From positions 2,795,729-2,859,728 of the forward strand of contig NW_003314271.1 in NCBI RefSeq assembly GCF_000143415.4: 64,000 nt of DNA. Direction: 5' to 3'. The notes under the pieces are model-generated. The model did not search any database, had not been told where the DNA came from, and was given only the letters and a program-made list of their open reading frames with translations. Position numbers and translations under genes: made by a program. This document shows, piece by piece, positions 1,745 to 56,407 of the stretch (position 1 is the first letter of the stretch; every line of letters starts with the position of its first letter). This stretch comes from Selaginella moellendorffii (taxonomy: Eukaryota; Plantae; Lycopodiophyta).

Positions 1745-2891
1745 TGTAAGCCACAAATTTTTCCTTTCCAATTTGCCAGCTTACCTCGTCTATCCGACCA
1801 ACTTTGCCTTGGCTTGTGCTAAGTTCCCTCGCCAAGGTTCTCGCCTATGGTACCAGCTCCTACTTGGTCCTACTTGGTTTCAGCTACTCATTGCACGAGC
1901 AACGGAGTGTTAGCCATCCATCTACGGATTCCCAAATCTCTCCCAATCCCCCTCCCCGGGCTAGACTGGACTTAAGGTTCGGCTACACTCCCCGCAGGCA
2001 CAAGCAGCCAAGCACACCAAGCCTCCAGATTCCTAACACCCCTTAGTACCACAAGACTTGATCATAGGACCCTCTAAATCCCAAGCCTTGGGTGCAGCAC
2101 TTGCTTCGGGACGTCGGTGCGAAACACCGTGGCCTAACGGCCCGGTATGGGTACCTCTACCCCCCACTTCCATCTCGAAGGGAAGGCCCAAGCCCTTAGG
2201 AAGGGTGAGGACCAATGAGCCACAAGGTACTCAAGTGGGGCACCACTCCACATGAGCCGGGAGCACCGCAGTCGGTTTCCCTTTCGGGAGTGGGAGCTGC
2301 TCTTGAGCACTTCCCTGGGTGGCCCCTCCGGCACCACTCAAGCCCATGCTCACTCCCACCCAAGGCCCCTCGACCCCAATCTCAACCTCAAGTCGGTTTG
2401 GAAGCCCCACTGGAGAGTTCCTTCAAGACTGGTTCCTGGACCTCACTATCCCTACTATACTTTTGGAACCCCCTGCAGCCCCCCCCCCCCCCTGGGAGAC
2501 ACACGCTTTGGGTTTTCACCCCTTGAGCTATATTAGTATGTGGAGTTAGTCTCAGAATTGATCTCGGACTCGATCTCGGACCTAACTTCGGACTCGGTCT
2601 CAGACTCGATCTCGGACTTGATCTCGGACCCGATCTCGGACTCGACTTCGGACTCGACCTCGGACTCGGTCTCGGACCCGATTTGGATCTCGGACTCTGT
2701 CTCGAACTCGGTCTCGATCTCGGTCTCCGATTCGGCCTCGGCTCGATCCCGGACTCTATCTCGAACTCGGTCTCAGAGTCGGTCTTGGACTCGATCTTCG
2801 ACTCGGTCCCATCCGATGAACTCTTTGTCATTTCGGTCAAGCTTTCAGGGATCCTTTAGCCTACGACATCTCGGGGAGTCGGTTCCTTACA
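1745..2891 (-). repeat. 3' LTR of element 1 (1147 bp)
   Basis: Near-identical to 8115-8356 joined to 15587-16449; PPT gggtggtggagt adjacent at 2892-2903 on minus. Confidence 0.95.
2545..2810. repeat. Degenerate hexamer array (CTCGGA/CTCGAT) inside family-A LTR
   Basis: Tandem hexamers; shorter version at about 16150-16370; related arrays at 17113-17545, 41250-41460, 43670-43830. Confidence 0.9.
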
Positions 2892-3676
2892 ACTCCACCA
2901 CCCATAGAAAAAGTTCGATGCCCACATCAAACGTCTCTTTTTATCCTAGGACTTGTTAACCATGTCTCCGGGGGCATCTCCCCACTTAGCGGTGTGCCTA
3001 AGTTAGCCTCCCCGGCCAAGAGCCCATGACAACGGAATATAGGTGTCCCTATACCCCTCACCTCACCACGCCCTAGTATGGGGTCGGGACTTGAACCCAG
3101 CCTTGCTTTACTAGGGGGTTGGGACTCGAACCCAACTTCCGTAGAATACGTCTACGGATTCGACATCCTCGCGGGGAGTCGGGCGTAGTGCCCTACGCCT
3201 GGTCGACCTATCCAACCCATGCTAATTAGCTTACCTTCGGCGCGCCTTCGGGTCCCAATATATGCCACTTGCTCAACTTTGCAAATTGATATTTTTAATT
3301 GAACTTTGCATAAGTACATAGAGTTCTGCCTTGCAGAAATTCCTCCACTAGATCTCGCGCGTTTGCTAGGTTCTCCTCCGATTCCCATGTTGCTTCGCAG
3401 TGTGGAAATCCTTTCCACTTCACATGGAACTCTCTCACCTCGCGTCCTTGTTGCTTGCTCTTGCGCGCATTGAGGATGGCCTCGACTTCGTATTCCTCTT
3501 CCCCTTGGATAACCTCAGGTAAAGGTCTCACTTGGTCCTTGCGAAGCGGATCCTCAAAGTACGGCTTGAGTAAGTTCACGTGGAGCACTGGGTGCATCTT
3601 CCCCATCTCTCGAGGAAGTCGGAGACGGTAAGCCACTTTACCGATTCGTGCTTCAATCTCGTTACGCCCCGCGAAC

Positions 3677-3728
3677 CTGCTTAAGGAACTCAAGATCAAT
3701 TCATTTACAGGAATACATGCATCTTTAC
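3677..3728 (-). other. 52-nt canonical GT-AG intron-like insert in integrase C-terminus
   Basis: CAA AG|gtaaag...ttaagcag|G TTC; removal gives SRKLTQRFAG, aligning to SRKLLPRYVG of element 2; retention gives immediate TAA. Confidence 0.75.
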
Positions 3729-4160
3729 CTTTGGGTCAACTTTCGGCTGATCCCACTTGGTAGTTCCCACTTGGTAGTCTGAGGTTCTTGGTGTTCAGCC
3801 ACACCTTCTCCCCAGCTTGGAACTCTACATCCCGACACTTCTGGTTCGCGTATTTGGTTTGCCTTTGTTGAGCCCGTTCCAAGGAATCCCTCACTAGATT
3901 CCAAATGCTAAGTCTTTCCGCCGTGAATGCCTCCACTGCGGGCAACTCTCCATGATACTCGGCCATGCCGAGTTCCACAGGACCTTCAATAGCTCACCCA
4001 TTGATGACTTCCCATGGACTCACCCCGATACTCGAATGTGGTGAGTTGTTATAACACATTTTCGCAAGTCCCAAATGACTTACCCAATCGGTTTGGTCTC
4101 CCGAGACATAGCATTGCAAATAATCCTCCAGCTGCCTATTCACCCTTTCCATTTATCCGT

Positions 4161-4206
4161 ATATCAAGAAGTGTTAGTGCCAACAACTTGACTTAACATC
4201 CCATAC
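4161..4206 (-). other. 46-nt intron-like insert in integrase core (GT...CTAAC...AT, acceptor one base off AG)
   Basis: ACA G|gtatgg...cactaacacttcttgatat|AC GGA; removal restores YHPQTDG(*M)ERVN. Confidence 0.65.
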
Positions 4207-6800
4207 CTGTCTGTGGGTGATAGGCTGTGCTGAATTTCAACTTGGTGCGATACTGTTCCAGGAGAGTCCTCCAGAACCTATTGGTGAAGATCTTATCTCG
4301 ATCTGACGGTCTTCCCCGCACTCGAACCACTTGTTCGAAGAATAGCTTCGCCACACCTTCCGCATCCACCTCCGTTGTGGTGGGTATGAAATGTGCCATT
4401 TTCGAAAATCGGTCCACCACCACGAATATCGCATCAAACCCCTCGCTTGGGGGGAGTCCCGTGATGAAGTCCATCGTAAGACATTTCCACGGACGATCTG
4501 GAATTGGGATGCTTTGCAAAAAGCCCCCACTAGCCTTAGTCACGGCTTTTACCTGCTGATATGTTGGACATGTCTTTACATAGTCTTGGACGTCCTTAGC
4601 CATATCTGGCCAATGGTACTTTCTCTTGAGTAAGCCCATTGTCTTGGGCACTCCGCCGTGTCTCGCAAGAGGTCTGTCATGACACTCTTCTAAGGCTACC
4701 TTCCTTAGTTCCCCTTCTGGAACATACACCCTCGTTTGCTTGTAATAGATGAGTCTATTGTGTTCCGCATAGCCTATTTTCTCTTCCGTTGGCAGCTCAC
4801 CTCTCTGGTGAGCTTCCCGTGCCACTAGATTCCTCAGCAACACTTCTTGTGCTAGACCATCGTTCTCATATGCTGTCCGCACATCGTCCCAGAAGGTTGC
4901 TGTTGCGCTGGATATTGCCAACCTCAAGCTCATTTTTCGACTTAGCGCATCCGCCACGATGTTGCTCTTCCCGGGCTTGTACAGAATTTCACAATCAAAC
5001 TCGGCCAAGGCATTGGCCCATTGACCTTGTTTCCCTCTCAGGTCGGGTTGTGACAAGAAGTGTTTCGTTGCCATATTGTCCATATAAACCTTGAAGTGTC
5101 TCCCAAGGTAGTGTTGCCACTCCTTGAGCGCCTTGACCACTGCAAACAATTCCTTCTCGTGGGCAGGCCACTTCCTTTGAGCCTTGTCCAACTTCTTCGA
5201 GAAGAACGCTACCGGATGGTTGTCCTGCTTCAAAACTGCGCCCAACGCAAAGTCCGAAGCATCTGTTTCTACCTCAAAGTCCTTACCAAAGTCTGGTAAT
5301 GCCAATACGGGAGCCTTCTTCAACTTCCCTTTGAGGTGGATGAATGCCGCCTCACATTCCGCTGTCCATACCATCTTCCCTTTTCCTGTTTGATCCGTTA
5401 AGGGCAGGGCTACTCTCGAATAGTGTCTGATAAACTTTCGATAGTAGTTGCATAGCCCCAGGAATGCCCTCAACTCGTGTACATTCGATGGTCGCTCCCA
5501 TTCCTGGATCGCTTGGACCTTCTCCGGGTCCACCTTGAGCCCATCCTGGCCCACCACATGCCCGAGAAACTTTACCTCTTGCTGAGCAAAGTCACATTTG
5601 CTCTCTTTAGCATACAGTTTATGTTCCCTTAGTTTCTCAAACACCTTCGCCAAGTGTTCGGCATGCTCCTCTAGCGTCTCGCTATATATCAGGATGTCGT
5701 CGATATAGACAACTATGAAGTGATCCAGATAGGGTACAAAGATGTGGTTCATCAGTGCCGAAAACGTTGCCGGCGCATTGCATAGCCCGAAGGGCATCAC
5801 CAGAAACTCGAAGCTCCCATACCTCGTTCGACAGGTTGTCTTCTCGACATCTTCCTCAGCTACTCTGATCTGGTAGTATCCTGACCTTAGGTCAATCCTT
5901 GAGAAGTATTTTGCCTTGCCCAACCTATTGAACAGGTCCTCAATCCTGGGCAAAGGGTACTTGTTCTTCTTTGTATACTTCTTGAGCAACCGGTAGTCTA
6001 TGCACATGCGCATAGATCCATCTTTCTTTTTCACAAATAACACCGGCGCCCCATACGGCGACTTGCTCAACCTAAGATACCTTTTGTCCACTAACTCCTC
6101 TAGTTGGCGCTTGAGCTCTTCGAGTTCTTTCTCGTTCAAACGATAGGGGGGACGAACCACCGCCTCAGCACCCTCGACCAGCTTAATCTTATGCTCTATC
6201 GGTCGTGCGGGGGGCAACCCCGCCGGTAACTCCTCCAGCATGGTATCCTGGAATTGGTCCAACACCCGTTGGATCACTAAAGGTACTTCTTCCGTTCCTG
6301 TCTTTTTGTCACTCTTCACCGAGATGCTGCCTTAATTCCTTTAGTGAGTTGTCCTCTCGTGGACACTAGGTTTAAGCAAGATTCTTTGGCCTTGCTTTGC
6401 CCTACCTTTAGATCCTGGGCCTCCACCCTGGACCTTCTTCCTTGGGCATTTGTCAGTACCACAAGGTTTCTACCTTGTCCATGCAGGGCTACCACGAACC
6501 GATTGAACCAGTCCATTCCGAAGATCACGTCAAATCCCGCCATGTCTAACACGGTGAAATCCATGTCTACTTTCCATGTCCCTACTTCGACTCTTGCTTG
6601 TCGAAGTACCTCATCGGTGCTTTGGCTACCTTGAACAAACTCTATAGTCCTTGGTTCGCCTAGCCGCTGCACCATTAGTCCAGCTTGCCAGACTATGTCT
6701 GCAGCCACAAAATTATCCGAAGCACCCGTGTCAATAAGGATTTTAACAAAGCTACCTCCGAGCTTTCCCCGGAGGGCTAGTAGATGTCGCGAACGACTCT

Positions 6801-6855
6801 CTACCAAAGTTGCTCGTGTAATGAGTAACTTTGAGTTAGGGATTGGATCACATAC
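6801..6855 (-). other. Candidate retained 55-nt intron at Gag/protease junction of element 1
   Basis: GAG|gtatgt...ctaac...ttggtag|; phase 0; splicing gives RVVRDIY*. Confidence 0.55.
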
Positions 6856-8098
6856 CTCAATTTGGACTTCACCCGACTTGATGGCCATATTGGCTCTGGC
6901 CTTCTTCGGGTTGGGACATTCCCTCGAAAAGTGTCCCGCTTCACTGTAGTTGTAGCATACGTTGTTTCCCATGCTGCTATACGACTTGACCTTCTTATCC
7001 GTGGGTTTGTCTCTTTTCGCTTGACTCCCCCACGTACTCGCTCGCTGGCCACCGGATTTGCCTTTCCGGAACCCCGAGGACTCATTCTTAGAGAAACTCT
7101 TTTTGAATTTCCCTCTGCTAAACGTTCCCCTTGGTTTAGCCCCTTTGCTAAACGTGGATCCCGACCCCGTTGTGTTCCCCTTTCGCAGGTTATCGTTAAA
7201 ATGCACCGTGATGGCCGCATCCAACGCTTCCTTGTAATTGGTCGGGTTCCACCGCATCACTTCACCGCGAGCCCAGGTTTGTAAACCTGATATGAAGGCA
7301 TGGAACGCATCTATATCCCCCATGTCCGTGACAAGTATCCTCTTTGCCATAAACCCATTCACATACTCCTGAATGGTTTCGGTCTACTTCAGCCTACTCA
7401 GCTCATCCCTTAGATGCAGAGTAGCATTCAGAGGAACGTAAGTTGCGCGGATCCTCGCCTTCATCATTTCCCAAGTGGCCACCGGTCCTTCGTTGGCCTC
7501 TGTCGTTCTCCACCAAGACTTGGCATTATCTGCCAAGTATGGTTTTGCACATGGGACCTTCTCCGAGCTCGGTAATCGCAACGCTCGGAAGTAGTCCTCT
7601 ATATCGTAAAACCAATCCTCCACCACCTTATAGTCGTTCACTCCCTTGAAGACCGGTGGGGGCTTTGGTTTGTACTTCGGAACTGCCTGAGGGACTAATT
7701 CCACTTCGGTTTGTTCGACCTTGTCTGGTTTTACCTCAGTCCCTGCCGAAGGGTCCGCACCTTCTGCGCTGCCAGCATCCGCAGTCTTTCGCTTTTTCTT
7801 CCGCTTCTCATCACGCTTTAGCTTGCATACGAGAGTCTCTAGCAGGGCATTGGTCTGTGCCAATTGTCCTTCTAGAATGTCCAATCGAGCCTTAGACGAC
7901 CGAACCTTGCCACCGGACTCCTGTTTGGAAGTTTCCTCACTGGAGTTCTCCTCATGCAAGGATTCCTCATCCATAGCCTCTTGTTCGACCGGAGGCTCTA
8001 GCTCTAGTGGAGGTTCCGTCTCCGCCTGGGTTCGCTTACGCCCCGCCCTTGCCATCTCCCAGCAATCCGCCTCTATCCTTCGTTAGAACTGAGGAAAA

Positions 8099-8111
8099 GG
8101 CTCTGATACCA
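8099..8111 (-). promoter_or_regulatory. Primer binding site (tRNA-iMet) of element 1
   Basis: tggtatcagagcc just inside the 5' LTR on the minus strand. Confidence 0.9.
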
Positions 8112-9470
8112 AATTGTAAGCCACAAATTTTTCCTTTCCAATTTGCCAGCTTACCTCGTCTATCCGACCAACTTTGCCTTGGTTTGTGCTAAGTTCCCTC
8201 GCCAAGGTTCTCGCCTATGGTACCAGCTCCTACTTGGTCCTACTTGGTTTCAGCTACTCACTGCACGAGCAACGGAGTGTTAGCCATCCATCTACGGATT
8301 CCCAAATCTCTCCCAATTCCCCTCCCCGGGCTAGACTGGACTTAAGGTTCGGCTACTGTCGCGAATGTGACTTCGGGTATCGAAAGATACTTGTCGGCTA
8401 GTACTTACGGACTCTCTCTTCTTACTGCCACGACGGCAGGAGGTCGGTACTGCTGGTTCCCTTTATGGTCTCCGCCCAAGCTAGTTGAGAAATTGGTCAG
8501 CAAATGTGCACTTAGACCGGAAGGGCACTAAGGAAGGAAATCCTAAACTGTCATTAAGTCAAGCATACTTGACACGGTGATGAGAAACTCATGATATTGA
8601 CTTGCACTTGCTAGTGTTGGGAACCCCCGCGATATTGAGACTAGTTCCTCGATATTCGCTAGATGATAGCTTACTGTGTTTGCCAAACACCCTCGCTATC
8701 ACGCCCTTTGTGTTAGTCTCGTTTCGGTCCCAAATGCTATTTATGGAAAGTGTCTAGATTCGCTCATTTGGCATATCTACGGAATGTAGAGGTCAGTCTG
8801 AACACAATGGTGTTCGTCCCGTGTCCAAATTCGCAATCTAAGGCCATTCCATATTTAGTAAGTTTCGAACTTGTCCCAGAGACTAACTCCTGGTACTAAG
8901 GGAGGCTTGGGGTGAAAGCCCAAAGCGTGTGTCCCTCAAGGGGGGGGGGGGCTGTGGGGGGTTCCAAATGTATAGTAGGGATAGTGGTTGGAATGCATGT
9001 CCGACCACTTAAGACATTAGTTTGGCTCCCACTGGGCTGTGTCGCTCCTTGTTCTGCGTCCGGCTTGGGTCTAAGCCCAAGCTCCACGCTGCTCTAGTCG
9101 GTGGAGTACCCTCCTCCTCGCGTTAGGCCACCGGTATGCCAAAATTGTGCCAGACTCCGTCTGACACCATTTTGCGTGTAGGTGCTGGATACGGGGAGCT
9201 GGTGCTCGTGGGATTGTACCGGACCCTCATTTCATAGCGCTACGGGCTTGGAGTTCGGCTCCAAATTTAGGTGCGCTACATTTGGTATCAGAGAATTGTC
9301 TCAGCGATTTCTATCCAACTTTTGTCGGATTTTCTGACTCAAGTTGCATACGCAGAGACTTTTCTAGTAGATCCGAAGCGACCTGTGTAGGATTAGTTGG
9401 ATTGCACCATTCGGTAAGAACGTTGTATGCATGTTTAGTTACTGATAGAGGCATGCATGCAGCTAGCAGG

Positions 9471-12400
9471 ATGGTGAAGAGGAACCATGCTGATGACGCT
9501 GAAACCTCTAGACGGGCAAATCAAGAGGAGGAAACTCCTGCTAGAGATGCTGCGGAAGGGGCTGAGGCCGAGTCAAAAGAGGATGAGCCAAATGCTGCAG
9601 CACTGCAGCGCACGGCTCATGAAGTCGAGATTGAGAATTTGCGAAAGGAGATTTGCAAATTGAAGAAGGAGAACAAGAAGAGGAAGAAAGAAGCTGAGGT
9701 AATTAAACCAGCTAAGCCTAAGCAACCGGACTCCTCTTCAAGTTCTGAGGACGATGAAGTTCTGCAGCCACCCCCGGTTGCACGAGTTTCAAAGTTCAAG
9801 CCTCCAAAACCACCCAATTTCAGAGGCATGCGGGACTATCAGGTTTTGGAAGACTGGGTCTACGATATGGAGAACTACTTCATAGCGGCAGACGTAGATG
9901 ATCGTACGAAAGTTGCGTGCGCGCAATCCTTTCTCACCGATCATGCCAAAACTTGGTGGCGCCAGGTGTGCCGAAAAAGGGCAGACTAGAAGTTGGACCA
10001 AGATGCGGTCTCGTATCCGTAAGGAATACTTGCCGGATGATCTTGGTCTGAGACTTCGCGCAGAGCTGCGGCAGTTAAAGCAGCGAGGGGACCTTATGCA
10101 TTACGTTAATGCGTTTGCTCAGAAGCGCATTATGATTGCAAATATGAGTGACGAAGATGCTCGGAGTTATTTTCTAGAGGGTTTAAGTTCATTTTCTCGC
10201 AATGAGATTTTGAAGTTTAAGCCGAAGACTTACCTGGAGTGTAAGGAGGCAGCACAGCAAGTTGCCTTTAGTCACTCGCTCATGGAACAATATCAGCAAC
10301 CTTATGCTGGTAACTCGGATAAGAATAGGAATTCTGGGAATAAGCAAGGTGATCAGAAACAAAGGGTGGAAGGTAGGTACCACCCTGGGGGCTCACAAAC
10401 TACGGTGAATAAAGGTGGTGGTGGTTGGAGACCACCAGCAGCTTCTTCTGGTCCTAGGCCCTCTGTTCCTCCTCCTGGTGGGTACAAGCAGCAGCAACCT
10501 ACAAAACCTGCTCCTAGCGGAATGGGTAGTGTGGGTCATTGCTTCCATTGTGGAGAGTCGGGACATAGGTCCTCGGAATGTCCCAACAAGCATAAGACAA
10601 GGTCTCGGGTTAATGTCATGAGGGAAGACGGTGGTGGTGAAGTTGAAGGGGTTGACGAGTTGGTCAATGCAGACTATGAGGAAGAAGAGGTGAGTAACTT
10701 TCGTTGCTTTCCTCAAGCTTTTCTTGCAGTCAACGCAAACACTGATCCGTTGATGTATCTGGTAGGCTTTGTCCGTGGACACCGAATCCGAGTGATGATT
10801 GACACGGGAGCTACGCACAGTGTGATATCCGAAGACTTAGTTAAGTTGTTAGGATTGAATGCTGAGCAAATGTCGCCTATGCACTTCCGGTTTGCGGAAG
10901 GTGGGCAAGTAGCCAGAAAGTTTGTGAGTGATGTTCCAATAAAGATATCCAAGTGGAAAGAAAGAGTGGACTTGGTAGTGTTGAAGATACCAGATTTTCA
11001 GATGGTGTTTGGTATGGATTTCTTCAACAAGTATATAAAAGGGATTTATGGTGCTGGACAAAGTCATATCACGTTGAAGTCAGAAGGACATCCTGATGTA
11101 TCCTTTCAGTTGCAAAAACGTTCCTCAAAAGATTGGGATGCAAAGTTCCTGACTGCGAGGGCCGCTCAAAAAGCAGCTAAGAGGGGATGTCAGACCTTTT
11201 GGGTTCAAGTGATGGAAACTGAGGGTATTGGTGACTCAGTTCGAATCGGCGACGGGGTTGATCCCGTACCAAAGAAGATATTGGAGTTGTTGGCGAGGAA
11301 TCAGGATATCTTCCCGAAGGATTTGCCGCCAGGGCTACCTCCTAGCCGTGAGGTTGATCATCGGATTGAGGTTATTCCGGGTTCTAAACCACCTACAAAA
11401 GTTCCATATCGGTTGAACATCAAGGAGATGGCTGAACTCAAGAAGCAACTCACGGAGCTTCTTGACAAAGGTCATATCCGACCAAGCAAGTCACCTTATG
11501 GAGCGCCAGTCCTTTTTGTTATGAAAAAGGATGGAACCATGAGGATGTGTATTGACTATCGGGCACTCAACAAGATCACGGTTAAAAACAGTTATCCTTT
11601 GCCTCGCATTGATGACTTGTTTGACCAACTCTTAAAGGCTAAGTATTTTACGCGACTTGATTTGCGGTCCGGGTATCATCAGATACGGGTGGCAGATCAG
11701 GATGTGGAGAAGACAGCCTTTAAGACTCGGTACGGATCTTATGAGTTCCTTGTCATGCTGTTCGGGTTATGCAATGCTCCGGCAACGTTCAGCACTATGA
11801 TGGATAGAATATTCGGAGATTATTTGGACGCATTTGTTGTCCTATACATCGACGATGTTCTTGTCTTTAGTGAGACGTTGGAGGATCATTTGAAACACTT
11901 GGAGCTAGTGTTTCAGAAATTGCGCGAACACAAACTATATGCTAAGGAAAGTAAATGCGCTTTTGGTCAATTGCACGTAAACTTTCTCGGACATATAGTT
12001 GGTGGTGGCGTGATTGAGGTCGATCCAAAGAAGGTGGAAGCGGTGAAGTCCTGAGAAGTCCCGACCACTGTATCAGATGTTCGTTCCTTTCTCGGTTTGG
12101 CGGGATACTATCGCAAGTTTGTCCGCAATTTTGCAAGGATTGCTCTTTCGTTGACTGAGTTGACAAAGAGTAGTATTCCGTTTCATTGGACACCAGCTTG
12201 CCAGCGTGCTTTTGCATGGTTGAAGGAGATCTTGACTACGGTTCCTGTTCTTAGGATCCCAGATCTTGATAAACCTTTCGAAGTGCATTGTGATGCATCT
12301 GGCTATGCTATCGGTGCCGTGTTGCAGCAAGATTGTGACAAAGCGGTTGGTGTTACGCTAAGGCGACATGGTTGTCCCGTTGTGTTTTATTCCAAGAAAT

Positions 12401-14066
12401 TGGATGAGACCCAACAAAGATGGCCAACGCATGAGAAAGAGATGTTTGCTATAGTGTCGGCCCTGGAACACTGGAGACACTACTTGGGTGGACATACCAA
12501 GGTTTATACAGATAGTAACACACTGAGCTACTTTGCTACGCAGCCTAAGCTTACGCTGAAGCAGGTTCGTTGGCAAGAGAAACTTGCTAGATATGATATT
12601 GAAATCATATATAAACCTGGTAAGGACAATATTGTTCCGGATGCGTTGAGTCGTCAAGCTCAATTCCGGGCAATATCGGCAATCAGTTCAGACTGGTTGG
12701 AAGACGTTCGGGCTTCGTATGGGAGTGATCCATTGGCGAAGACAATCTTACGCCGTGCGGAGTTGTCGAAGCAGAGCTCTGGTAGCGAAGCAGCGAAAGT
12801 TGCTAGTCGCACTAATGCAAAGCTTCACTTCTTAGTTCGGGATGGGCTTATATTCTATAAGCAAGAAAGATTGTATCTTCCCTCTAAGGATCTTCAGCAG
12901 TTATTTCTGCGGGAACATCATGATGTTCCAGCAGCGGGACATGGTGGACAGCGAAAGACTCTAGCTTCATTGAAAAAGGGATTTCATGGCCATTTCAAAG
13001 TGTGACACTTGATTTCGTCACTTGTTTGCCGAAGTCTAAGGGTTATGATACTTTGATGGTGGTTGTGGATCGGTTGTCAAAGATTGCACACTTCATTCCA
13101 ACTGTGGGAACAGTAAATGCGAAACAAGCAGCAAAGCTCTTTTTCCATGAAGTAGTGCGAGTTCGTGGTCTTCCTGAAGAAATGATCTCAGATAGAGATT
13201 CGAGGTTTACAGGGAAGTTTTGGGGAACCCTATTCCAGTTGTTTGGTACCAAGTTGAAGTTTAGTACGGCTTATCATCCTCAAACTGATGGGCAGACCGA
13301 ACGTGTGAATGCTCAAGTTGAGGATTATCTGCGGTACTATGTCGCGGCGGACCAACGCGACTGGGTTGAGCATTTGGATACAGTAGAAATTTGTTATAAC
13401 AACACATTTCACAGCGCTATAGGCTGTTCTCCATGGGAGATGTTGCAAGGAAATGCTCGTGGGGTTCCTCAACAGATCGTTGTCCCGAAACCAATGACCA
13501 AAGTGTTGGTCCCAGCCGTTGAAACTTATGCGGAGCAGCTACGCCAAGGTTGGTCTAGAGCTACTGAGGCGATGGGCAAAGCTCAGGATAGGTATCGACG
13601 TGATAAGGATCAGCATCGTCGGGATGTATCCTATCAAGTGGGAGATCAGGTGTGGCTATCTTCCTGAAACTTGAATATTAAGGGTTCTTTGTCTCGGAAG
13701 CTCTTGCCGAGATATGTTGGACCCTATCGGGTGTTAAAACGTCTTGGTGATGTATCCTATCAGTTGGATATTCCAGAAGAGATGTTCAGCCTTCATGATG
13801 TGTTTCATGTCAGTTTACTGGCCCCATATCATGAGGATCCTAGCCGCTCTAGGAATGTTCGTCCAGCTCCGGATGTTATTGATGGTGAACCGGAGTATGA
13901 GGTTGAGGCCATCCTTTTGTCTCGTAAGGCACGTGGTGGTCGTGCGAAGGAATATCTAGTTAAGTGGAAAGGTTACCCGACTTGTGAATCAACTTGGGAA
14001 CCTCTTAGTAATCTTGTACATGCCCGTGAGCTTGTCACGGAGTATGAGAATAGTAATAAAAAATAG
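9471..14066 (+). pseudogene. gag-pol of element 2 (Gag, CCHC, PR IDTGAT, RT YIDD, RH, IN, GPY, chromodomain)
   Basis: ORFs 9282-9989, 9898-12054, 12097-13005, 13002-13667, 13671-14066; frameshift near 9968, TGA at 12052 and 13665, deletion of IN zinc-finger CxxC near 12990. Confidence 0.95.
10690..10729 (+). other. Candidate retained 40-nt intron at Gag/protease junction of element 2
   Basis: GAG|gtgagt...cttttcttgcag|; phase 0; splicing gives STQTLIR*. Confidence 0.55.
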
Positions 14067-16878
14067 CTTTTGTAAATCTTGTAATAAATCTTGCAAATTA
14101 ATAAAGTAAAATATTTCTATCACTTAAAGTGTCGTTTCTCTCGATCATTTGTACTTGGGTCAGTTTTGGCAAGCTGACTTCGGCACTTCGGTGCATGGGT
14201 CCAATCCATAACCATGGGGATAACTATTATAGACTAATCACAAGTCCCCGCCTCTCTCTCGATGTCTCATTTTCCAAAAGGGGCGTGGTCGTGTAAACAA
14301 CTTCATCTGCCAGTTTATAATAGTTGTCTAAATCTTCCCGACGGGGTTGATTTCTTGCTCAGGGGAAGTTGGGCCTCTGGTCTTCTCCCTATATCCCTGT
14401 GGGCAGGGATGTATCATTCCTTTGTAAGCCGAGTGGTACTCGGAGTAGCAAGGGTGGCTAACTCCGTTGGTCATTTCCTTGTCGGCGACGGCCGGAGGGT
14501 GTCTGAGTCTTAGCGTCTTTCGACGTAGAGGAGAGGTCGTTCCATAACTCAGTGTGTTTCCCACATAGTGTGCCTTCCATTAACTTTCGGAGTTGTTTCC
14601 TTGACGGTTTGCTAGACTCGGGTATGCATCGACGAGGATGTCGATCTTCCCCAAGGGGGGGAGAGTGTCGCGAATGTGACTTCGGGTATCAAAAGATACT
14701 TGTTGGCTAGTACTTACGGACTCTCTCTTCTTACTGCCACGACGGCAGGAGGTCGGTACTGCTGGTTCCCTTTATGGTCTCCGCCCAAGCTAGTTGAGAA
14801 ATTGGTCAACACATGTGCACTTAGACCGGAAGGGCACTAAGGAAGGAAATCCTAAGTTGTCATTAAGTCAAGCATACTTAGCCCGGCTTTTTAGTTCTCT
14901 TTTGCTCTGTCTTACACTGGTTTGGCAAGAACCCTCGCGTATTGAGACTAGTCCCTCGATATTCGCTAGATGATAGCTTACCGTGTTTGTCAAACACCCT
15001 CGCTATCACGCCCTTTGTGTTAGTCTCGTTTTGGTCCTAAATGCTATTTATGGAAAGTGTCTAGATTCGCTCATTTGGCATATCTATGGAATGTAGAGGT
15101 CAGCCTGAACACAATGGTGTTCGTCCCGTGTCCAAATTCGCAATCTAAGGCCATTCCATATTTAGTAAGTTTCAAACTTGTCCCAGAGACTAACTCCTGG
15201 TACTAAGGGAGGCTTGGGGTGAAAGCCCAAAGCGTGTGTCCCTCAAGGGGGGGGGGCTGTGGGGGGTTCCAAATGTATAGTAGGAATAGTGGTTGGCATG
15301 TCCGACCACCTGAGACATTAGTTTGGCTCCCGCTGGGTTGTGTCTCTCCTTGTTTTGCGTCCGGCTTGGGTCTAAGACCAAGCTCCACGCTGCTCTAGTC
15401 GGTGGGGTACCCTCCTCCTCGCGTTAGGCCACCGGTATGCCAAAATTGTGCCAGACTCCGTCTGACACCATTTTGCGTGCAGGTGTTGGATACGGGGAGC
15501 TGGTGCTCGTGGGATTGTACCGAACCCTCGTTTCGTGGCGCTACGGGCTTGGAGTTCGGCTCCAAATTTAGGTGCGCTACAGCTACACTCCCCGCAGGCA
15601 CAAGCAGCCAAGCACACCAAGCCTCCAGATTCCTAACACCCCTTGGTACCACAAGACTTGATCATGGGACCCTCTAAATCCCAAGCCTTGGGTGCAGCAC
15701 TTGCTTCGGGACGTCGGTGCGAAACACCATGGCCTAACGGCCCGGTATGGGTACCTCTACCCCCCACTTCCATCTCGAAGGGAAGGCCCAAGCCCTTAGG
15801 AAGGGCGAGGACCAATGAGCCACAAGGTACTCAAGTGGGGCACCACTCCACATGAGCCGGGAGCACCGCAGTCGGTTTCCCTTTCGGGAGTGGGAGCTGC
15901 TCTTGAGCACTTCCCTGGGTGGCCCCTCCGGCACCACGCAAGCCCATGCTCACTCCCACCCAAGGCCCCTCGGCCCCAATCTCAACCTCAAGTCGGTTTG
16001 GAAGCCCTACTGGAGAGTTCCTTCAAGACTGGTTCCTGGACCTCACTATCCCTACTATACTTTTGGAACCCCCTGCAGCCCCCCCCCCCGCCCCCCCCTG
16101 GGAGACACACGCTTTGGGCTTTCACCCCTTGAGCTGTATTAGTATGTGGACTTAGTCTCGGACTCGATCTCGGACTCGATCTTGGACCTGATCTCGGACT
16201 CGACTTTGGACTCGACCTCGGACTCGGTCTTGGACCCAATCTGGATCTCGGACTCCGTCTCGAACTCGGTCTCAATCTCAGTCTCCGATTCAGCCTCGGC
16301 TCGATCCCGGACTCTATCTCGAACTCGGTCTCAGAGTCGGTCTTGGACTCGATCTTCGACTCGGTCCCATCCGATGAACTCTTTGTCATTTCAGTCAAGC
16401 TTTCGGGGATCCTTTAGCCTACGACATCTCGGGGAGTCGGTTCCTTACTCCCCCCCTTCCCCCCCCCCCCCCCCACCTTGAGGAACACATGCTTTGGGCT
16501 TTCACCCCAAGCCTCCCTTAGTACTAGGAGTTAGTATCTGAGACAAGCTCAAAATTTACTAAATATGGAATGTCTCTAGATTGCGAATTTGGACACGAGA
16601 CAAACATCATTGTGTTCAAAACAATCTCTATATTTCATAGATATGCCAAATGAGCAAATTTGGACACTTTTGATAAATAGCATTTAGGACCAAAATGAGA
16701 TTAACATAAAGGGCATGATAGCGAAGGTGTTTGGCAGACATGGTAAGCTATCATCCAGCGATATTGAGGGATTAATCTTAATACGTGAGAGTTCTTGTCA
16801 AGCTAATGCAAGACAGAGCAAAAGAGAATTAAGAGCCAGGCCGAGTATGCTTAGCTAGAAACACATATGAGTTCCTAC

Positions 16879-18544
16879 TGTGAGACACAAAATCCCTAGG
16901 CCCCAAAGTGGAGCTGGAAATGGTGCCACGTGGTAGTGGCCAAAGTGAAAGCCAAACGAGCGTAACACGTTTGGACTAAAAGCTCCGACTTGAAAGGTCG
17001 AGAGTGGGAGTGGAACTCCCAACAAAGTGCTCGAGGAACAAGCACGAAGCGAGCAATAAGCGAGGCTCCAAAAAGGGACCCAAAAAGGACCAACACATGA
17101 CACGTGGAAGTGTCCGAGATGGAGTCCGAGACGGACCCTAGTTGGAGTCCGAGATGGATCCGAAGTGGAGTCCGATATGGAGTCCGAAGTGGAGTCCGAG
17201 ATGGAGTCCGAGATGGACCCGTAGTGGAGTCCGAGGTGGAACAAGACGGAGGATGGAGTCCGAGATGGAGTCCGAGATGGACCCGAGATGGACCCGAGAT
17301 GGAGTCCGAGATGGACTGAGACGGAGTCCGAGATGGAGTCCGAGATGGACCGAGACGGAGCCCGAGATGGAGTCCGAGATGGAGTCCGAGGTCGAGACCG
17401 AGACCGGGACCGAGACCGAGACCGAGACCGGGACCGAGACCGAGACCGGGACCGAGACCAGGACCGAGACCGAGACCGAGGCCAAGGCTGAGACCGAGCC
17501 CAAGTCCGAGTCCGAGTCCGAGTCCGAGTCCGAGTTCGAGTCTGAGAGGGTGAAAGCCCAAAGCGTTCGTCTCCCAGACCCTGGGGGGTTTGGTGAGCTC
17601 CAAAAGTATAGTAAGGGGGAGGACTGTAGTGGAGCCAGTTTGGCCAGGAAAGGCCAGTTCGGCCCAGGAAGGCCAGACCCAGTGTTGGGTGATGAACTGA
17701 CCACTGGGAAGTCCAAGACTAGAGTGAATACGGACCGACAAGCGGGGTAGCTTGGTGAAGTGTTCAAGAGCTGGCTCTAGTTCCCCCGGGAGATCGACTG
17801 GCCGATGCTCCCAGTCCAAGTGTGGGTGGCACTACCTACTTGGATACCAGGCGTGGCTCAACGGAACCTCGCTCTAAGCCCATGGCTAGAGCACCTAAAG
17901 GCGAAAGGCGGGGAGAGTACCCAGGTGGCTCGCGTAAGGCCACGGTGTTCCAAAATGTTGTCCCAAAGGCCCAGACTGTGGAAAGGAAGAGGAGCAGTCC
18001 TCTGGGGTAGTGACCAAGGACACAGTCGTGTGGTGAGGAAGTCCCAGAGGACCGTGGGACTTAGTGGTCGGGCCTGTGGGCCTCGATCCAGTGGCAGTGT
18101 TGGCAAAAACACGACCAGGGGCAGAAAGGGACTTGGTAGGAACTGACAAAGGGACTTTGGGGAAGGCGATTCCCCAGGTCTGTGGGCATCCTAAGGATGC
18201 TAAGGTGTGGATCTAGGATGACCACTCATGGACAGATGGCCCAGTCTTAGAGAGACGGGATGGTGATGCAAGTGGCATTGGACCACTAGTGCAGCAAAGG
18301 TGAATGGGCATTTCCTTAGCGTAACGGGCCGAGATGTCAGTGGTACCTTTGGGTGTCGGTCTTGGGACCGGACACGTGGAGCACTTGGACCAGGTGCAAG
18401 TGTTGAGTGGCATGGATGCCATTCTTGGGGCTAGCAAGTCCCAAGTCCTGAATTGGACTTATGGAGGTTGTGAATGAGACTCCTCCAAGTGGTCGGAGGT
18501 GTGGTTAAGTGACTAAAGTAGATTGGAAAAATTAGTCACTTACA
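16879..18544 (+). mobile_element. Solo LTR, family C (1666 bp), inserted in a family-B LTR
   Basis: TGTGAG..CTTACA; TSD CCTAC 16874-16878 and 18545-18549; host LTR rejoins as in the uninterrupted copy near 23620; internal hexamer array. Confidence 0.95.
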
Positions 18545-21500: not shown

Positions 21501-23804
21501 TTGCTTTAGCCCCAAAGGTCAGCATCCCTTTTAGGTCGCATTATACAAACTACTTACTAAGGTTTAAGCCAACCGAAGTCAACTCCAACCCCTTCACTAG
21601 TTTGTATTAGCTTATGAAAACGAAATGGTTTTTGAGCAAAGTGATCAATAGATCAGCTATTAGAAAAGTCTAAGAAAATTTGTGGAAAATTTTCTATCCT
21701 AGAGAAAGAATGACTCTCAATCTAGGAATACAAACTTTCAAGACTCAACCAACTTCCTCCTACCAACAACTTCACATAAGTTCACCTCAACACAAATTCT
21801 CATGATCCAATAATATGCTTAAGCATTGAACATATTTGCCTCAAGTGCCAACTCAATCTGATAAAATGCAATATAAATGCCACTCTCCATCGATAGAGAT
21901 TTACAACACCCAACACCACTAACTTTTGTTTACAACATAGACAAACTCATGCTACTTTCTTTCCGACCAAACTCAAAACTAATCCAACACCAAATTACTC
22001 AGGGAACAATAGCAAGGTTCCCTGGAAAAGAATTAAGCATTGCGTCCCAAGTCTTTAATAGCAAGCCTAGACAAAATGGTTTAACGCTTCACCACTATCC
22101 ATCCTATGACTCACCACTTGTAAAACCATCATTTCCAATATGCATCAAGGTAGGAACTCTTGATTGCATATTGTGAACACGAGCAATGAGTCACACCTCA
22201 TTGCAAATCATCTCTCCAAGAAGAGAAGATGCTTTACGTGTTTGATCCTTCGTCCCTGATAACTCTCTTTTTGGTCTCATATTTGACCCAACCTCAAGCT
22301 TGCATTCGCATTGCCTTCAGTTCAATCCAAGAAAAGTTTATGAGAGAGCACGGCAATAACTACTTGAATCAATAGACTAATCCCTATAATCTTGATTGAT
22401 CCACTTATAATCATGCCTAAGAAGGATCCATTAGTGCCATGCTAAATAGCTACGGACCAGCCTATTTGCCACTCATAGCAAACCCAGGGAAGGTTTACTT
22501 TTACCCATGGTACATGGAATAACTCATGGAACCACCAATAAGCTAACATTAATCCTGCCAACTCAAAGTGCAACCTTGAGTTGCTAATGCACCTCACTCA
22601 TGAGCCTAAGTGTAAACTCGTGCAAACAAAACATCTCAGTCCATCTTATGAGCCCAAGAGTACGCCATATAACATGATACAAAAATGTAACCAAATCTAC
22701 CTAAAGAACGATTGCGAAATCTTTGCACCCAAACATGTACCCATTCAGATCATTGTTTTCATCTCTGCGTATGCAATGAGATTAGTTGCCCAATCTCATT
22801 GGATAGAACTCGCTGAGACAATTTCTCTGATACCAAATGTAGCACACGTGGTTTTGACCCTTTATCCTATGGTGATTTACCATAAAATAACACCACGAAG
22901 CGGAACCTAAACCTCTATGTGCCACATGTCCATAGGACAGTGGTGTGGAACCCAAGGTTCAGGGCCTTGGGCCACTGAACGAAGGAATGGTGCCAAACTC
23001 CCAAGCATAGAGCCAAGAAATGATAGAATCAGACCACGGAGCAATTGGAGGATATAGGTACTCCACCAGCTAGCATGGTGTGGAGTTTGGGCTTAGACCC
23101 AAGCCAGACGCAAAACAAAGATAGGCACCCAAGCAACAATTAAACTACGCCTAAAATTGGTCGGCCATGCCTAACCCTACCCACTATCCCTACTATACAT
23201 TTGGAACCCCTTGACAACCCCCTCCCCCTGAGGAACACACACTTTGGGCTTTCACCCCAGGCCTCCCTTAGTACTAAGAGTTAGTCTCTGGGACAAGCTT
23301 AAAACTTACTAAATATGGAATGTCCCTAGATTGTGAATTTAGACATGGGACGAACACCATTGTGTTTAAAACAATCTTTACATTTTGTAGATATACCAAA
23401 TGAGCAAATCTGAACACTTTCTATAAATAACATTTGGGACCAAAATGAAACTAATACAAAGGGCATGATACTAAAGGTGTTTGGTAGACACGGTAAGCTA
23501 TCATCCAGTGATATTAAGGAACTAATCTCAATATGCAAGGGTTTTTGTTAAGCCAGTGCAAGACAGAGCAAAAGAGAACTAAGAGCTAAGTTGAGTATGC
23601 TTAGCTAGAAACACATAAGAGTTCCTACCTTATGTCCATCTGGCTAAGTACAAGTGCTAAGCCCAATAAACTAACACTTGAACAAGAGGGGCTAATAAAA
23701 GAAATTAGCAATACCGACCTCCTATCATCGTGGCAGTAAGGAAAAAGTGTTCGTAAGGAACGGCCGACAGATAACTTTCGATACCGGAAGTCACATTTGC
23801 GACT

Positions 23805-25100
23805 GTTGTCTTAAACGATATGGCATTCACAAGAGCAACAATTCACATTGGCCAACATAACCATCTAGTGGCGAGTGGGACATACTTGGAGACTTTGGAT
23901 GTAGTTATATTTGTTGTTTCAAAAATAGTAGATCAATCTCCAAGAGTTTAACCTACAGTTATAACTACTAAAGCAGTAGATGAGTTGATTCTTCAAAATT
24001 TCTTACAATCAATTTTAAACACTATAACATTTTCACCCTAATAATTGAGCAAAGCATTGGATAGTCTTTTGGCACTTACCAATAAATGAAAGTAAGATTT
24101 AGTCAATTTAAAATATTATTTTGTATTTACTTTAAAATATTTTTGCAGGATGTGAATTGTAATAGAAAACTTTAGAAGAAAATCTCTCTTTTTTTTTGAG
24201 AAGTCCTCAAGTCTCAATGCAATTTTAAAGTTTAAAAATGAGTTTAACTACAACTTCTTTTAAAGCATTGCTTTTTTAGGACTAATCTAAGTTGAAGCCA
24301 AAAAATGATGTCATGTTTTCAAGATGTTGGTGGATGGTATTAAAAGTGGAGTTGATCTTGTTAAGTGAATGTTATCAAGTATAGATTTGCAATACTCTTG
24401 GATATGCTTTGATCATACACACATAATTCCTGAATAGTCTAAAATAACTCCCAATGTGTACAATCTAAGGTAAATATGCATTTATTCAATTATTATATTA
24501 ATAATGTTCTTTTATGTAGAGCATAATCCTTAATAGTGATAATTGTTTATGAGATGAGAGGAGAAGACATGCCAGCTCAAGTTCTTTTTTGGACACTACT
24601 AAACAAAATATACTAAGTTGGAACAGGATCTTTAACACCACTAATATTTTATGATTTTGTGAGTGATGAAGTGCAAGCAAATTGATGAGCTATTAGAACT
24701 ATCTACAATAGTGGTTTAGATAAGGTTTTAGTTGGCCAAGAGAGGAGTTGTTTTTTCCATTGGGAGTAAAGTCTACATGAACACAGAGAAATATATTCAA
24801 ATTGAATACTATGATGAATATAAGTAATTGTACTAGAGTTTAAAATTTGCAAACACTTTAGAAAATGCAAAAAAGCAATACAAGTTCATACGTTTATAAC
24901 AAGTTTGAGGTAATGCTTATGAGAAAGCAATTCCAAGCACAATGGTTTAATCTTTCTATTATAGATGAGTTATCAAATAGTTGCTACCTAAATTCTAACA
25001 ATAAATTTTACCAAGAGTTACCATATGATGTGGCTAGCAAAAATAAATGGCTTTAAACGTGTATTTCTATCTAAAACTTGCTAGAATGATTTGGTCATTT
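23805..25100 (+). pseudogene. MULE transposase fossil, core piece
   Basis: IHIGQHNH, CFDHT, FVSDEVQAN**AIRTIY and ERSCFFHW (CxxH) motifs in degraded frames. Confidence 0.6.
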
Positions 25101-25109
25101 TTATCCTAC

Positions 25110-25389
25110 CGTAAGTTCCTGAGTTTAGACTTCGTAGGAGGTCACCCAACTCTATAACCTCTTGAGTTTGGATTTTTTAAGAGGTCAATTAGCCTTGTAA
25201 TCTCTTGAGTTTGGAATTTTTGGGAGGTCACCTAGCCCAGTACTACTCAAACCCAAGGATACTTAACCCCAAATATCTTAAGACCTTTAATCGATTGGAA
25301 AAGGGGGTGCACTTTTATTCATGGGCCCTTTCCCTTTGTATTTGAACTTTATGGATTATCTTTTGAGTTGTTCCTTTTAGTTTCTTACA
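25110..25389 (-). mobile_element. Cassandra TRIM solo LTR (25196-25389, 194 bp) plus two extra copies of its last 43 bp
   Basis: Reverse match to LTRs at 34827 and 35370 including the 5S-derived segment. Confidence 0.85.
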
Positions 25390-25759
25390 TTTACAACAAG
25401 CCTTTATACATGCTTATATGAAAGGCTAGATTATAGGAAATAGACTGAATCTTAAAGATTTGATGGCACACTTATCTGCTATAACATCAATACGACTTCC
25501 TAGTCACAATCTCATAAAGGTGGTGGGATTAGCTTTAAATGATCTTGGAATTTGCTCTACAACAAAACCAATTGGGAATCTTAAAATTATCAGAAGGAAG
25601 CAACAAGCAAATGAGCTGATATAGCTAACAAATTCACACCGTCTCAAGTATGAGTATGTTACTAGAGAACAAAGAGAACCAATGCTTCCAAGCAACCAAA
25701 AGTTTAAATGCTTCCAAGTTAAAGAACAAAAGATTCATAAGATTGAGTAGGTTATATAT

Positions 25760-26905
25760 TGTAGCGCACGTGGTTTTGACCCTTTATCCTATGGTGATTT
25801 ACCATAGGATAACACCACGAAGCGGAACCTAAACCCTCTTTGTGCCACGTGACAGATGCCACGTGTCACATACCATGTGTCCATGCCACGTGTCCATAGG
25901 AACCCGAGGTTCAGGGCCTTGGGCCACTGAACGAAGGAACGGTGCCAAACTCCCAAGCATGACACCAAGGAGTGATGGAACCGAACCACGGAGCAACTCC
26001 CGAGCATATAGCCCAAGGAGCGAAGGGACAGGAGCCCGGAGCGACTTGGAACAGTCCTAGAGCAACCAGCATCCCAATGCCAGGACCAGCACGCAAAACG
26101 GAGCCAAACGGAGTCTGGTGCTATTTCGGCATACCGGTGGCCTAACGTGAGGATATGGGTACTCCACCAGCTAGTATGGAATGGAACTTGGGCTTAGACC
26201 CAAGCCGAACGCAGAACAAGGACAGGCACGCAAGCGGGAGCTAGACTATGCCTCAGGTTGGTCAGCCATGCCCGACCTACCCACTATCCCTACTATACAT
26301 TTGGAACCCCCTACAGTCCCCCCCCCCCTTGAGGAACACACGCTTTGGGCTTTCACCCCAAGCCTCCCTTAGTATCAGGAGTTAGTCTCTGGGACAAGCT
26401 CGAAATTTACTAAATATGGAATGTCCCTAGATTGTGAATTTGGACATGGGACGAACACCATTGTGTTCAGACCGATCTCTACATTTTGTAGATATGCCAA
26501 ATGAGCAAATTTGGACACTTTCCATAAATAGCATTTGGGACCGAAATGAGACTAACACAAAGGGCATGATAGCGAGGGTGTTTGGCAGACACAGTAAGCT
26601 ATCATCTAGTGAATATTGAGGGACCAAACTCAATATCGCAGGGGTTCCCAACACTAGCAAGTGCAAGTCAACGAATGAGTTTCTCTAACCAGGTCAAGTA
26701 TGCTTGACTAATAGCACTTAGGAATTCCGTCCTTATGCCCATCTGGTCAAGTGCACACGCGAGGACCAGTTTCTCAACTAGCTTAGGTGGAGACTAATAA
26801 CGAGTCCAGCAATACCGACCTCCTGCCATCGTGGCAGTAAGGTAAGAGTGTCCGTAAGGACTAGCCGACAAGTAACTTTCGATACCTGAAGTCATATTCG
26901 CGACA
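25760..26905 (-). mobile_element. Solo LTR, family B (1146 bp)
   Basis: TG..CA; perfect TSD TATAT 25755-25759 and 26906-26910. Confidence 0.95.
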
Positions 26906-27139: not shown

Positions 27140-27427
27140 ATGCTTTATTTCGTTAAAGTGGGACTTATTCAGTAAAGTGGGACATTAATTAGCATGTGTC
27201 CACATGCCATTTCCTAGTACTTAATTAATATTTATTAATATTTCTATCAGTTTTTTAATTTATTTTTTTATATTTCACAATATTATAACACAAAATCATA
27301 TGAAAAGTTTTTAATTTATAAATTATAAAGTTAAAACTTCAATTTTTTATTGTTGTTATAAAAATGGCATGTGGCCACACACTATAAGTGGGATAATAAA
27401 AAGTCCCACTTTAACGAAATAAAGCAT
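27140..27427. mobile_element. MITE, 288 bp, about 27-bp TIR (ATGCTTTATTTCGTTAAAGTGGGACTT), 4-bp TSD TACC
   Basis: Perfect TIRs; AT-rich interior; second copy at 46579-46866. Confidence 0.9.
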
Positions 27428-28319: not shown

Positions 28320-28635
28320 CAGATCCCCCTGGGGAGATGGACAATGGAACATAGATTAGTCCTCACGTCCTGCGCCAAAGGCTCCATCCCATCCCTCCTA
28401 GACATAAATCTATAGCCGGCACTGAATAATTCGTGTTGCTGCTCCACAGAGATGACCTTGCTGCCAGGACACATGGCACACAACACCCCTAGCTTCCATA
28501 TCTCGAGGTAGTGGTTGAGCTTGCCAACGGTCCAGTGCTTACCACAGTGCACATCTCGCAGTTGTTCCATGCCTGCCAGTCGAGATCGTTGTCGTGCTCC
28601 ACACGCGCAAACACCGCTTCAAAAGATTACAGCAT
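28320..28635 (-). pseudogene. N-terminal fragment of REase-like family A gene
   Basis: SFEAVFAR..EHDNDLDWQAWNN..WTVGKLNHYLEIWKLG matches 55398-56276; early stop and frameshifts. Confidence 0.85.
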
Positions 28636-29339
28636 CCTCCTTAACTCAAGGCTCATCCGCTACCAGCCATGATCTTCAAAGCTCGAATTCATAACTTTGA
28701 TTGTGAGACTCCAGAAAGAACATGAACTCAAGCTTCGTGAGAAAAGGTATTGCCAAAGATTATGCCAAATGGTCGACAGGCCAAACCACTTTTGAGCTCA
28801 CGAGCTCAATGCATACCAGGAGATGCAAGGTCAAAACAGTCAATGTAAAGTCAATAAAAGTCCATAATGTCCTCAAAGCTTATTAGAAAAATACAAAAAA
28901 AACTCACTTCTGACCCTGTCAAGGAGTTCAAAACAACTTGTTGCGAATCTTCATACCTGAGCAAGCAATCTTTGCAAGGGCCTCGATGAGTTCCGCTGGA
29001 TGATCTTCACCATCTCCGCCTTGTATCCATGCCTGGAAAAAGAAAAATCTTGAGACAATAGCAACAGGGATGGTCCAAAATTGAGCTCCACATTCTGTCA
29101 TTTCCAGAATGTTCTCCTGTGCAATTGTTCTGAGCATGATCGATGAAGCTGCCAAACCTTTGGCTCGTCCAGTCCCAGTATCGTTGCTTAGTTTGGTTTG
29201 ACAATTTAGTTTGGAAACTAAAAAGAACTAGAGGTCAGGCAGAACAACACAATCGTCAAACCTCCAGTACCATGTTGCTGTGCTTCTTGGGATCGTGCAA
29301 AGGTTGAGCACTCACTTGTTGTTCCTTAAAGGTATTGTC

Positions 29340-29610
29340 CACAGTGCCAGACGCTGCCCGAGCTCCTCTCCTACAAGGACGCCTACTTCCATAGCCCCGA
29401 CTCCAAGGTCCAGATCTTGCTGGCTCTCAAGTGCTACTTGAAGACGTGGATGAGGCAGATGGTGGCGGTGTTGTTCGAGCAAGACAAAGGTGATGGTATC
29501 GCTGCAAGAGCCATCTCGTTTGGGGAGTGTTGAGTATAACATGGTTGCCGTTCAGGAGTGTGGCAACCATGTTATACTTGATCTCTACTGCATCAAGACA
29601 TAGTTCCAGG
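29340..29610 (+). pseudogene. C-terminal fragment of REase-like family A gene
   Basis: QCQTLPELLSYKDAYFHSPDSKVQILLALKCYLK...ISFG; high nucleotide identity to 55841-56040. Confidence 0.85.
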
Positions 29611-55300: not shown

Positions 55301-55397
55301 CTGCGACCGAGAGTCGCAGACGGGGCACTGCAGGCCACCAAAAGCTTGGCAAATTACCTATAAAACCTCAGTCCTTTTGAGGCTCATGGGTTTTAAG

Positions 55398-56276: not shown

Positions 56277-56407
56277 TCTAGACGTGTCTTTTCATCTCTG
56301 CTTAATCTCTTACTCATACCCGTGTTTTGCTTGTAAGCTATTATCTATGTATCTTTCATACTCCTCTCTTGCCGCCAAGACATGAACGAAGGACATACTC
56401 TCTCGAT

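Follow-up and report, generated by a model that had tools for sequence, protein, structure and literature searches.

How can a retrotransposon keep introns in its own integrase gene? Passage through RNA should rid an LTR element of its introns, a principle on which the standard retrotransposition reporters are built, and the plant exceptions singled out as notable in a review of 2025 are Ogre and EVD (PMC12786077). The question is raised by a retrotransposon, here element 1, in a window of 64,000 nucleotides of Selaginella moellendorffii DNA (the whole stretch analysed), whose integrase is interrupted by two short intron-like inserts. The answer that we consider probable is that the inserts are family-wide spliceosomal GT-AG introns, precisely removed in presumed RNA, that unspliced RNA is likely the form that is replicated, and that complete integrase comes only from doubly spliced RNA.

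Element 1 is a Ty3/gypsy chromovirus: it has LTRs, a primer binding site (PBS), a polypurine tract, the order Gag-PR-RT-RH-IN and a C-terminal chromodomain, with domain matches to Gag, protease, RT, RNase H, integrase, an SH3-like domain and a chromodomain. It lies on the minus strand, as do all the features below unless stated. The 3' LTR (1745..2891, 1147 nt, TGT...ACA) adjoins the polypurine tract (2892..2903). The PBS TGGTATCAGAGC (8100..8111) is presumably of the tRNA-iMet type. The 5' LTR (1105 nt) is in two pieces, its 3' piece at 8115..8356 and its 5' piece at 15587..16449, cut apart by element 2, a related chromovirus on the plus strand (8357..15581; target duplication GCTAC). The integrase of element 2 lacks both introns and serves as intron-free comparator. 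The target duplication of element 1 itself (CCCCC) is uninformative because its insertion site is a poly-C stretch within another LTR.

Exon A (4207..8055) carries Gag with a zinc knuckle, protease, RT, RNase H, the integrase zinc domain and the first two catalytic Asp. Intron 1 (4161..4206; 46 nt, phase 1) stands in the integrase core directly before the catalytic Glu. Exon B (3729..4160) holds the end of the core with this Glu (4147-4149) and a linker. Intron 2 (3677..3728; 52 nt, phase 2, GT...AG) falls in the SH3-like/GPY-F region of the C-terminal part, ahead of the chromodomain, and exon C (3295..3676) encodes the remaining SH3-like domain and a group I-type chromodomain at about 3334-3492 (PF24626, PF00385). 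The window copy is damaged in several further places, as had been cautioned at the outset. Exon A is disrupted by a stop in gag and by a frameshift between protease and RT (at 6300-6340, considered copy-specific by ORF-length arithmetic). Exon B has private stops and a private 14-nt duplication; it measures 432 nt, and 418 nt without the duplication, a length that fits between an intron of phase 1 and one of phase 2.

The surroundings are crowded. Related LTRs and solo LTRs form a dense nest (1200-2900, 8350-9280, 14660-16900, 22800-26900, 32300-33500 and 38000-38600), and a degenerate 12-nt tandem repeat with a 6-nt subunit occurs in the LTRs of element 1 and a related LTR (2560-2810, 16150-16370, 17110-17550). 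Over 1098 aligned sites the two LTRs of element 1 show 27 differences (K2P 0.025). Those of element 2 are more diverged (K2P 0.058), yet its insertion into the 5' LTR of element 1, marked by a 5-nt target duplication, should make it the younger; conversion, template switching or a recombination of two copies might account for this. Two MITE-like AT-rich units of 288 nt, 99% identical and with terminal inverted repeats of about 25 nt, lie at 27140-27427 and 46579-46866, the latter interrupting a decayed Ty3-type pol. Near the two ADH genes lie several diverged copies of a coding-like sequence that has no annotation (28330-29530, 53240-53750, 55390-57900 and 61100-61900). One ADH exon of the window matches a protein of S. 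moellendorffii at 100% identity, in agreement with the host.

The reading of the two inserts in the original prediction holds for the window copy. The 46-nt insert (4206 to 4161) follows an exon end ACAG and runs GTATGG...CTAAC...GATAT, CTAAC being a putative branch-point sequence. The 52-nt insert (3728 to 3677), GTAAAG...AAGCAG, is preceded by the exon end AAAG and followed by GTTC. When retained, the 46-nt insert brings a stop at its fifth codon, and the 52-nt insert at the codon next to LTQR. Alignment of element 1 with the intron-free integrase of element 2 leaves exactly 46 extra nt between HPQT and DG at the first site; at the second, the insertion of 22 residues relative to element 2 corresponds to the 52-nt insert plus the 14-nt duplication private to the window copy. 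The 46-nt insert precedes the catalytic Glu by four codons, and the spacing of this Glu from the second Asp is 35 residues, a DD35E motif shared with the Ty3 integrase (PDB 7q5b). The 52-nt insert lies within the C-terminal SH3-like domain, upstream of the GPY/F motif and the chromodomain.

The inserts also resemble introns in composition. Their GC contents are 0.37 (46 nt) and 0.35 (52 nt) vs 0.49-0.51 in the flanking exons, and such values are rare by chance: only 22 of 2075 windows of 50 nt in intron-free pol have a GC of 0.37 or less. They match the host introns in size, as had been noticed, eight introns of the host ADH genes measuring 46-64 nt with a GC of 0.30-0.42 (by eye). The 4-nt repeat AGGT does flank the 52-nt insert, and the last five letters of intron 1, with the AG ending of the family, are those of the preceding exon (GACAG, by eye). 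These repeats at both introns would fit an insertion with a short duplication, for which they are weak evidence because they overlap the splice consensus. A search for a special RNA fold in the introns, such as a packaging or splice-silencing signal, found none beyond shuffled sequences (z from -0.61 to 1.08).

Since the window copy carries several other lesions, the inserts could be debris of this one dead element, such as repair filler or small insertions. We regard this as practically negligible. The best match of the inserts to other DNA of the window is 12 nt long (E 0.13), which speaks against a filler drawn from nearby DNA. Moreover the inserts are not unique to the window copy. In the DNA run X1, 16089 contigs aligned on positions 3250-4800 at 88% identity or more, most of them 90-99% alike, and each listed site within the inserts is spanned by 34-65 contigs; the inserts are also present in X4, X17 and X18. 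X4 is a second sample, which behaves like low-coverage DNA and was treated as DNA-type (61 contigs aligned); of the runs X1-X14, X1 and X4 made up the comparison. The AT end of the 46-nt insert, which had counted against an intron, is private to the window copy, because the 3' AG at 4161 makes up 97% of the depth in X1 (148395 of 152789, 41 contigs); it is found in all covering contigs of X4, X17 and X18 too. Thus the ends are of the U2 type, GT...AG for intron 2 in the window and for intron 1 in nearly all other copies. Some other copies have one-base insertions within intron 1. Copy-specific filler was rejected on these grounds, the inserts being common to the family and skipped exactly in three presumed RNA runs, as follows.

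Contigs of three runs from three studies (X15, X17 and X18, presumed RNA by guess) were aligned at 82%; these are three of the six presumed RNA contig runs (X15-X20). It had been accepted that inserts never spliced would refute the idea of introns, and this did not happen: the inserts are skipped at their GT-AG ends in all three runs. Each intron is skipped in two of the three presumed RNA runs and kept in both DNA-type runs, the RNA status being guessed. In X15 a single contig of 1083 nt lacks both inserts, skipping exactly 52 and 46 nt, with 222 and 255 nt on its sides; the joint from 4160 to 4207 and the 52-nt skip both have a depth of 9.36. X18 skips intron 2 (depth 59.2) and retains intron 1. 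In X17 a form without intron 1 (depth 10.1) stands beside one that retains it (6.3), and intron 2 is kept at depth 2; the skip of intron 1 there, reported as 52 nt with six exon letters between, is the same junction as in X15. From three raw RNA runs (X22-X24), each sampled to about 12%, 4, 2 and 0 reads aligned, too few to inform. The X18 contig, the deepest presumed RNA contig (59.2; 3453-4240), joins unrelated sequence to the element 34 nt upstream of intron 1; it probably represents a truncated copy driven by an adjacent promoter.

The skipping contigs could instead be intronless active DNA copies, of an ancestral or retro-spliced subfamily, that move in trans an insert-bearing majority whose integrase is dead. 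The guessed RNA status of the runs leaves room for this, and non-autonomous partners are common, as BARE2 on BARE1 (PMC3735527). In addition the DNA depth falls over intron 1, in X1 to 328542 and 522399 in two bins vs about 0.8-1.0 million beside them, and in X4 to 51.5 vs 79-131. The drop may come from faster divergence of the intron, or could hide intronless copies. Against this reading, no joint that skips an insert was seen among 15 listed of the 17 joints of X1 (depths of the listed joints 96-292), where the summed depth inside the inserts is about 100000-775000, and X4 has no such joint among its 61 aligned contigs, while its contigs run unbroken through both introns, one of 532 nt across intron 2 and three of those listed across intron 1. 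The ends skipped are exactly GT-AG at two sites. The X15 contig does not look like one from a rare side lineage, because its alleles are the majority ones in X1 DNA, at 4030 (523300 of 816260, 64%) and at 4259 (468058 of 698050, 67%). As to X18, it keeps intron 1 and shares the alleles at 3853, 3908 and 3943 with the window copy, which has both introns, and so does not look like a rare intronless side lineage. We therefore consider intronless active copies a very unlikely source of the skipping contigs. A minority of rare intronless DNA copies is nevertheless possible, since contigs show presence rather than absence and drop rare variants, 15 of the 17 X1 joints are listed, and the depth falls over intron 1. 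Among more diverged copies, loose ends at 3658-3681 (X4) and 3695-3724 (X1) look by eye like variants of intron 2 at the same position, a weak hint that intron 2 could be older than the main burst.

Is the spliced frame used by the element? Of 65 rows of variants 40 were listed; less six in introns and one in the private duplication, they give 33 exon sites. Among the sites varying between other copies 15 of 19 are synonymous in the spliced frame, vs 4 of 14 among the sites private to the window copy (Fisher p 0.0057, on these 40 of 65 rows). Downstream of intron 1, in exons B and C, the figures are 11 of 15 vs 4 of 13 (p 0.056), and in exon B alone 10 of the 13 sites varying among other copies are synonymous. 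This small sample (40 of 65 rows) suggests that the integrase past intron 1 is used by replicating lineages.

We then come to the origin of the introns. In a tree of RT-RNase H (80 of 122 rows kept, midpoint root, no clade name following from the tree), element 1 groups with element 2, P0006 (1190 residues) and P0020 with a support of 0.976. Site 1 is read through in element 2, P0006 and P0020, and site 2 in element 2 and P0006; P0006 and P0020 are gene calls and could hide introns. For distant relatives the DNA itself was used at 95 loci, and an intron-sized gap is found at site 1 or 2 in none of these outside loci. At site 1, 91 of the 95 loci with DNA span the site without insertion. At site 2, 77 of the 95 span it with at most five extra residues (72 with at most three, 5 with four or five), 3 are in two pieces (-5 to 2 nt), 4 are one-sided and 11 uncovered; with a shorter query 51 of the 95 are one-sided. 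The site-1 motif is also intact in 101 of 120 homologous proteins, a biased sample, because gene prediction favours open frames or stitches exons together. A homolog search with exon C returned four distant proteins, and no close intron-bearing relative was found in another species, the best identities being 44-47%.

As close and distant relatives lack the inserts, both introns would have been gained in this lineage after its split from element 2 and the other close relatives. The original prediction had opposed a family that packages unspliced RNA to de novo intron gain in a transposable element. The two are not exclusive: gain and retention through retrotransposition are both supported, and it is the choice between them that falls.

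By layout, a match of layout and not of sequence, element 1 is SM1-Galahad, a Galadriel-related chromovirus of S. moellendorffii with hundreds of copies about 95% alike, for which no intact copy was found and whose consensus has three ORFs (PMC3350952). That element is about 7.5 kb long, with LTRs of 1076/1146, a tRNA-Met PBS, and ORFs of 3885 bp (Gag-Pol, ending without chromodomain), 316 bp and 309 bp, the last with the chromodomain (PMC3350952). Both share the host, the length of about 7.5 kb, poly-G tracts and the tRNA-Met PBS, and an LTR of 1146 answers to one of 1147 in element 1 (its other LTR being 1105). In both the Gag-Pol ORF stops in the integrase core and two more short ORFs follow, the last of 309 nt with the chromodomain. 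Beside element 1 also lies an SM2-Galahad-like relative of 7.2 kb with LTRs of 920 nt, which is what element 2 is like by size. The 16089 contigs of X1, mostly 90-99% alike, are consistent with the published similarity of about 95%, although they count contigs and not copies.

The ORF sizes agree as well. In element 1 the ORF that starts at the ATG and is stopped inside intron 1 measures 3863 nt, that ending in intron 2 318-321 nt, and that of the chromodomain 309 nt. With 12 nt missing in the window copy and 10-13 nt fitting its protease-RT frameshift, the first would come to about the published 3885. As these sizes fit stops in the introns, the introns account for the three-ORF structure, and the published consensus very probably holds both of them, unrecognised. 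The words "intron" and "splic" do not occur in the main text of PMC3350952, which gives the three ORFs unexplained; the introns and their splicing are thus the new part.

How would such an element replicate? Gag to integrase would be read in one frame without frameshift. The unspliced RNA would yield Gag-PR-RT-RH and an integrase stub lacking the catalytic Glu, an RNA freed of intron 1 alone an integrase with full core and no chromodomain, and an RNA freed of both introns the full polyprotein. New genomic copies keep the introns, and therefore the RNA that is reverse-transcribed should be mostly unspliced. Spliced RNA would be mostly excluded from reverse transcription, through separate RNA pools or an early capture of unspliced RNA by Gag, for which BARE1 gives a demonstrated and Ogre an implied example, because otherwise the introns would be stripped in one cycle. 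The integrase dose per particle would then be set by the host spliceosome. That spliced RNA serves as mRNA and unspliced RNA as genome, a division of labour shown for BARE1 (PMC3735527), is the likeliest reading and one that we expect to hold; in it the selective copying of unspliced RNA, like any regulatory role such as the splice-gated integration and targeting of the original prediction, is what we infer.

This division could go further, the host spliceosome acting as a two-step switch on integration alone while a sorting encoded by the element keeps spliced RNA from reverse transcription. Unspliced RNA would then give particles and cDNA and no integrase; loss of intron 1 would give a catalytic integrase without chromodomain, and loss of both a chromatin-targeted enzyme. 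If so, whether and where new copies insert would depend on the tissues or conditions in which intron retention changes. We put this forward tentatively, as the less probable extension.

The introns may on the other hand be real and passive, that is, spliceable insertions in a master lineage, with inefficient splicing leaving the particle RNA unspliced by default and enough spliced RNA for integrase. Neither dedicated sorting nor a benefit in regulation would be involved, and intronless copies would exist as a small minority, which the contig data accommodate. The retained forms in presumed RNA (both introns in X17, intron 1 in X18), the short repeats at both introns, as after insertion, and the lack of a structure signal agree with such passivity. 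It is less easily reconciled with the spliced depth, which at least equals the retained one where assembled (10.1 vs 6.3 in X17, spliced only in X15), contig depth being a poor measure. Moreover an intronless copy, needing no splicing, should spread, and none is seen in X1 (joints listed) or X4; no intact copy is reported among hundreds (PMC3350952); and two independent gains kept in one domain would be hard to obtain by drift alone. On balance passive introns appear unlikely, and the division of labour between the two RNAs remains our preferred reading.

Two must-remove introns in the catalytic domain of a successful family make a natural marker for the choice between translating and copying an RNA, and the count of intronless genomic copies would directly measure the leak in that choice. 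With hundreds of dated copies, two recent intron gains become traceable. A published anomaly, the three ORFs of SM1-Galahad and its want of an intact copy, would be explained. There is also a warning: ORF-based pipelines will score such autonomous families as dead.

Among retroelements, Penelope-like elements keep spliceosomal introns in genomic copies; they are non-LTR elements with another replication route. For introns inside the integrase of an LTR element we found no report, in a search that excluded most subscription papers and repeat-database entries; a phrase search of the literature returned only an Ogre family. The parts consulted of PMC2533021 mention only an Ogre intron in pol, and those of PMC12477816, PMC7175516 and PMC2864245 hold nothing bearing on introns in integrase.

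In BARE1 only unspliced RNA is packaged, and attempts to amplify a DNA copy of the spliced RNA failed (PMC3735527, PMC5580714). The facultative introns of BARE1 and EVD/Ty1-copia are like those of element 1 in that spliced and unspliced RNAs coexist (PMC3735527, PMC5580714). They differ in that splicing removes coding sequence and leaves Gag only, the unspliced RNA giving the full polyprotein; in element 1 it is the reverse. Foamy virus packages one RNA as its genome and makes its Pol enzymes from another, spliced one (PMC7828637), but the splice there removes gag to give a separate Pol, without a dedicated intron inside an enzyme domain.

Two clades were considered for element 1 and rejected: Tcn1, whose members are mostly without a tRNA PBS and self-priming (PMC6317226), because element 1 has a PBS of the tRNA-Met type after its 5' LTR, and Ogre, because of the chromodomain and of the location of the introns inside integrase.

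Ogre, of the Tat clade of Ty3/gypsy, is nevertheless the nearest in operation: its gag-pro and rt-rh-int are separated by an intron whose removal from part of the transcripts permits the full polyprotein (PMC6317226, PMC4408406). As in element 1, this non-coding intron stays in the genomic copies and is removed from a subset of transcripts (PMC6317226, PMC4408406). The original prediction held that known retroelement introns are not must-remove introns within integrase. The site inside integrase does appear to be new in the literature searched; the must-remove principle is not, the Ogre intron being must-remove for RT-RH-INT (PMC6317226, PMC4408406). As a consequence only the place inside integrase and the number of introns are new, and not the principle of splicing to finish Pol. 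Ogre has one intron, of 274 bp on average, between two ORFs, which sets Gag-PR against Pol, whereas element 1, a chromovirus, has two host-sized introns in one enzyme, and its RT and RNase H need no splicing. Element 1 thus works like Ogre, and is not an Ogre.
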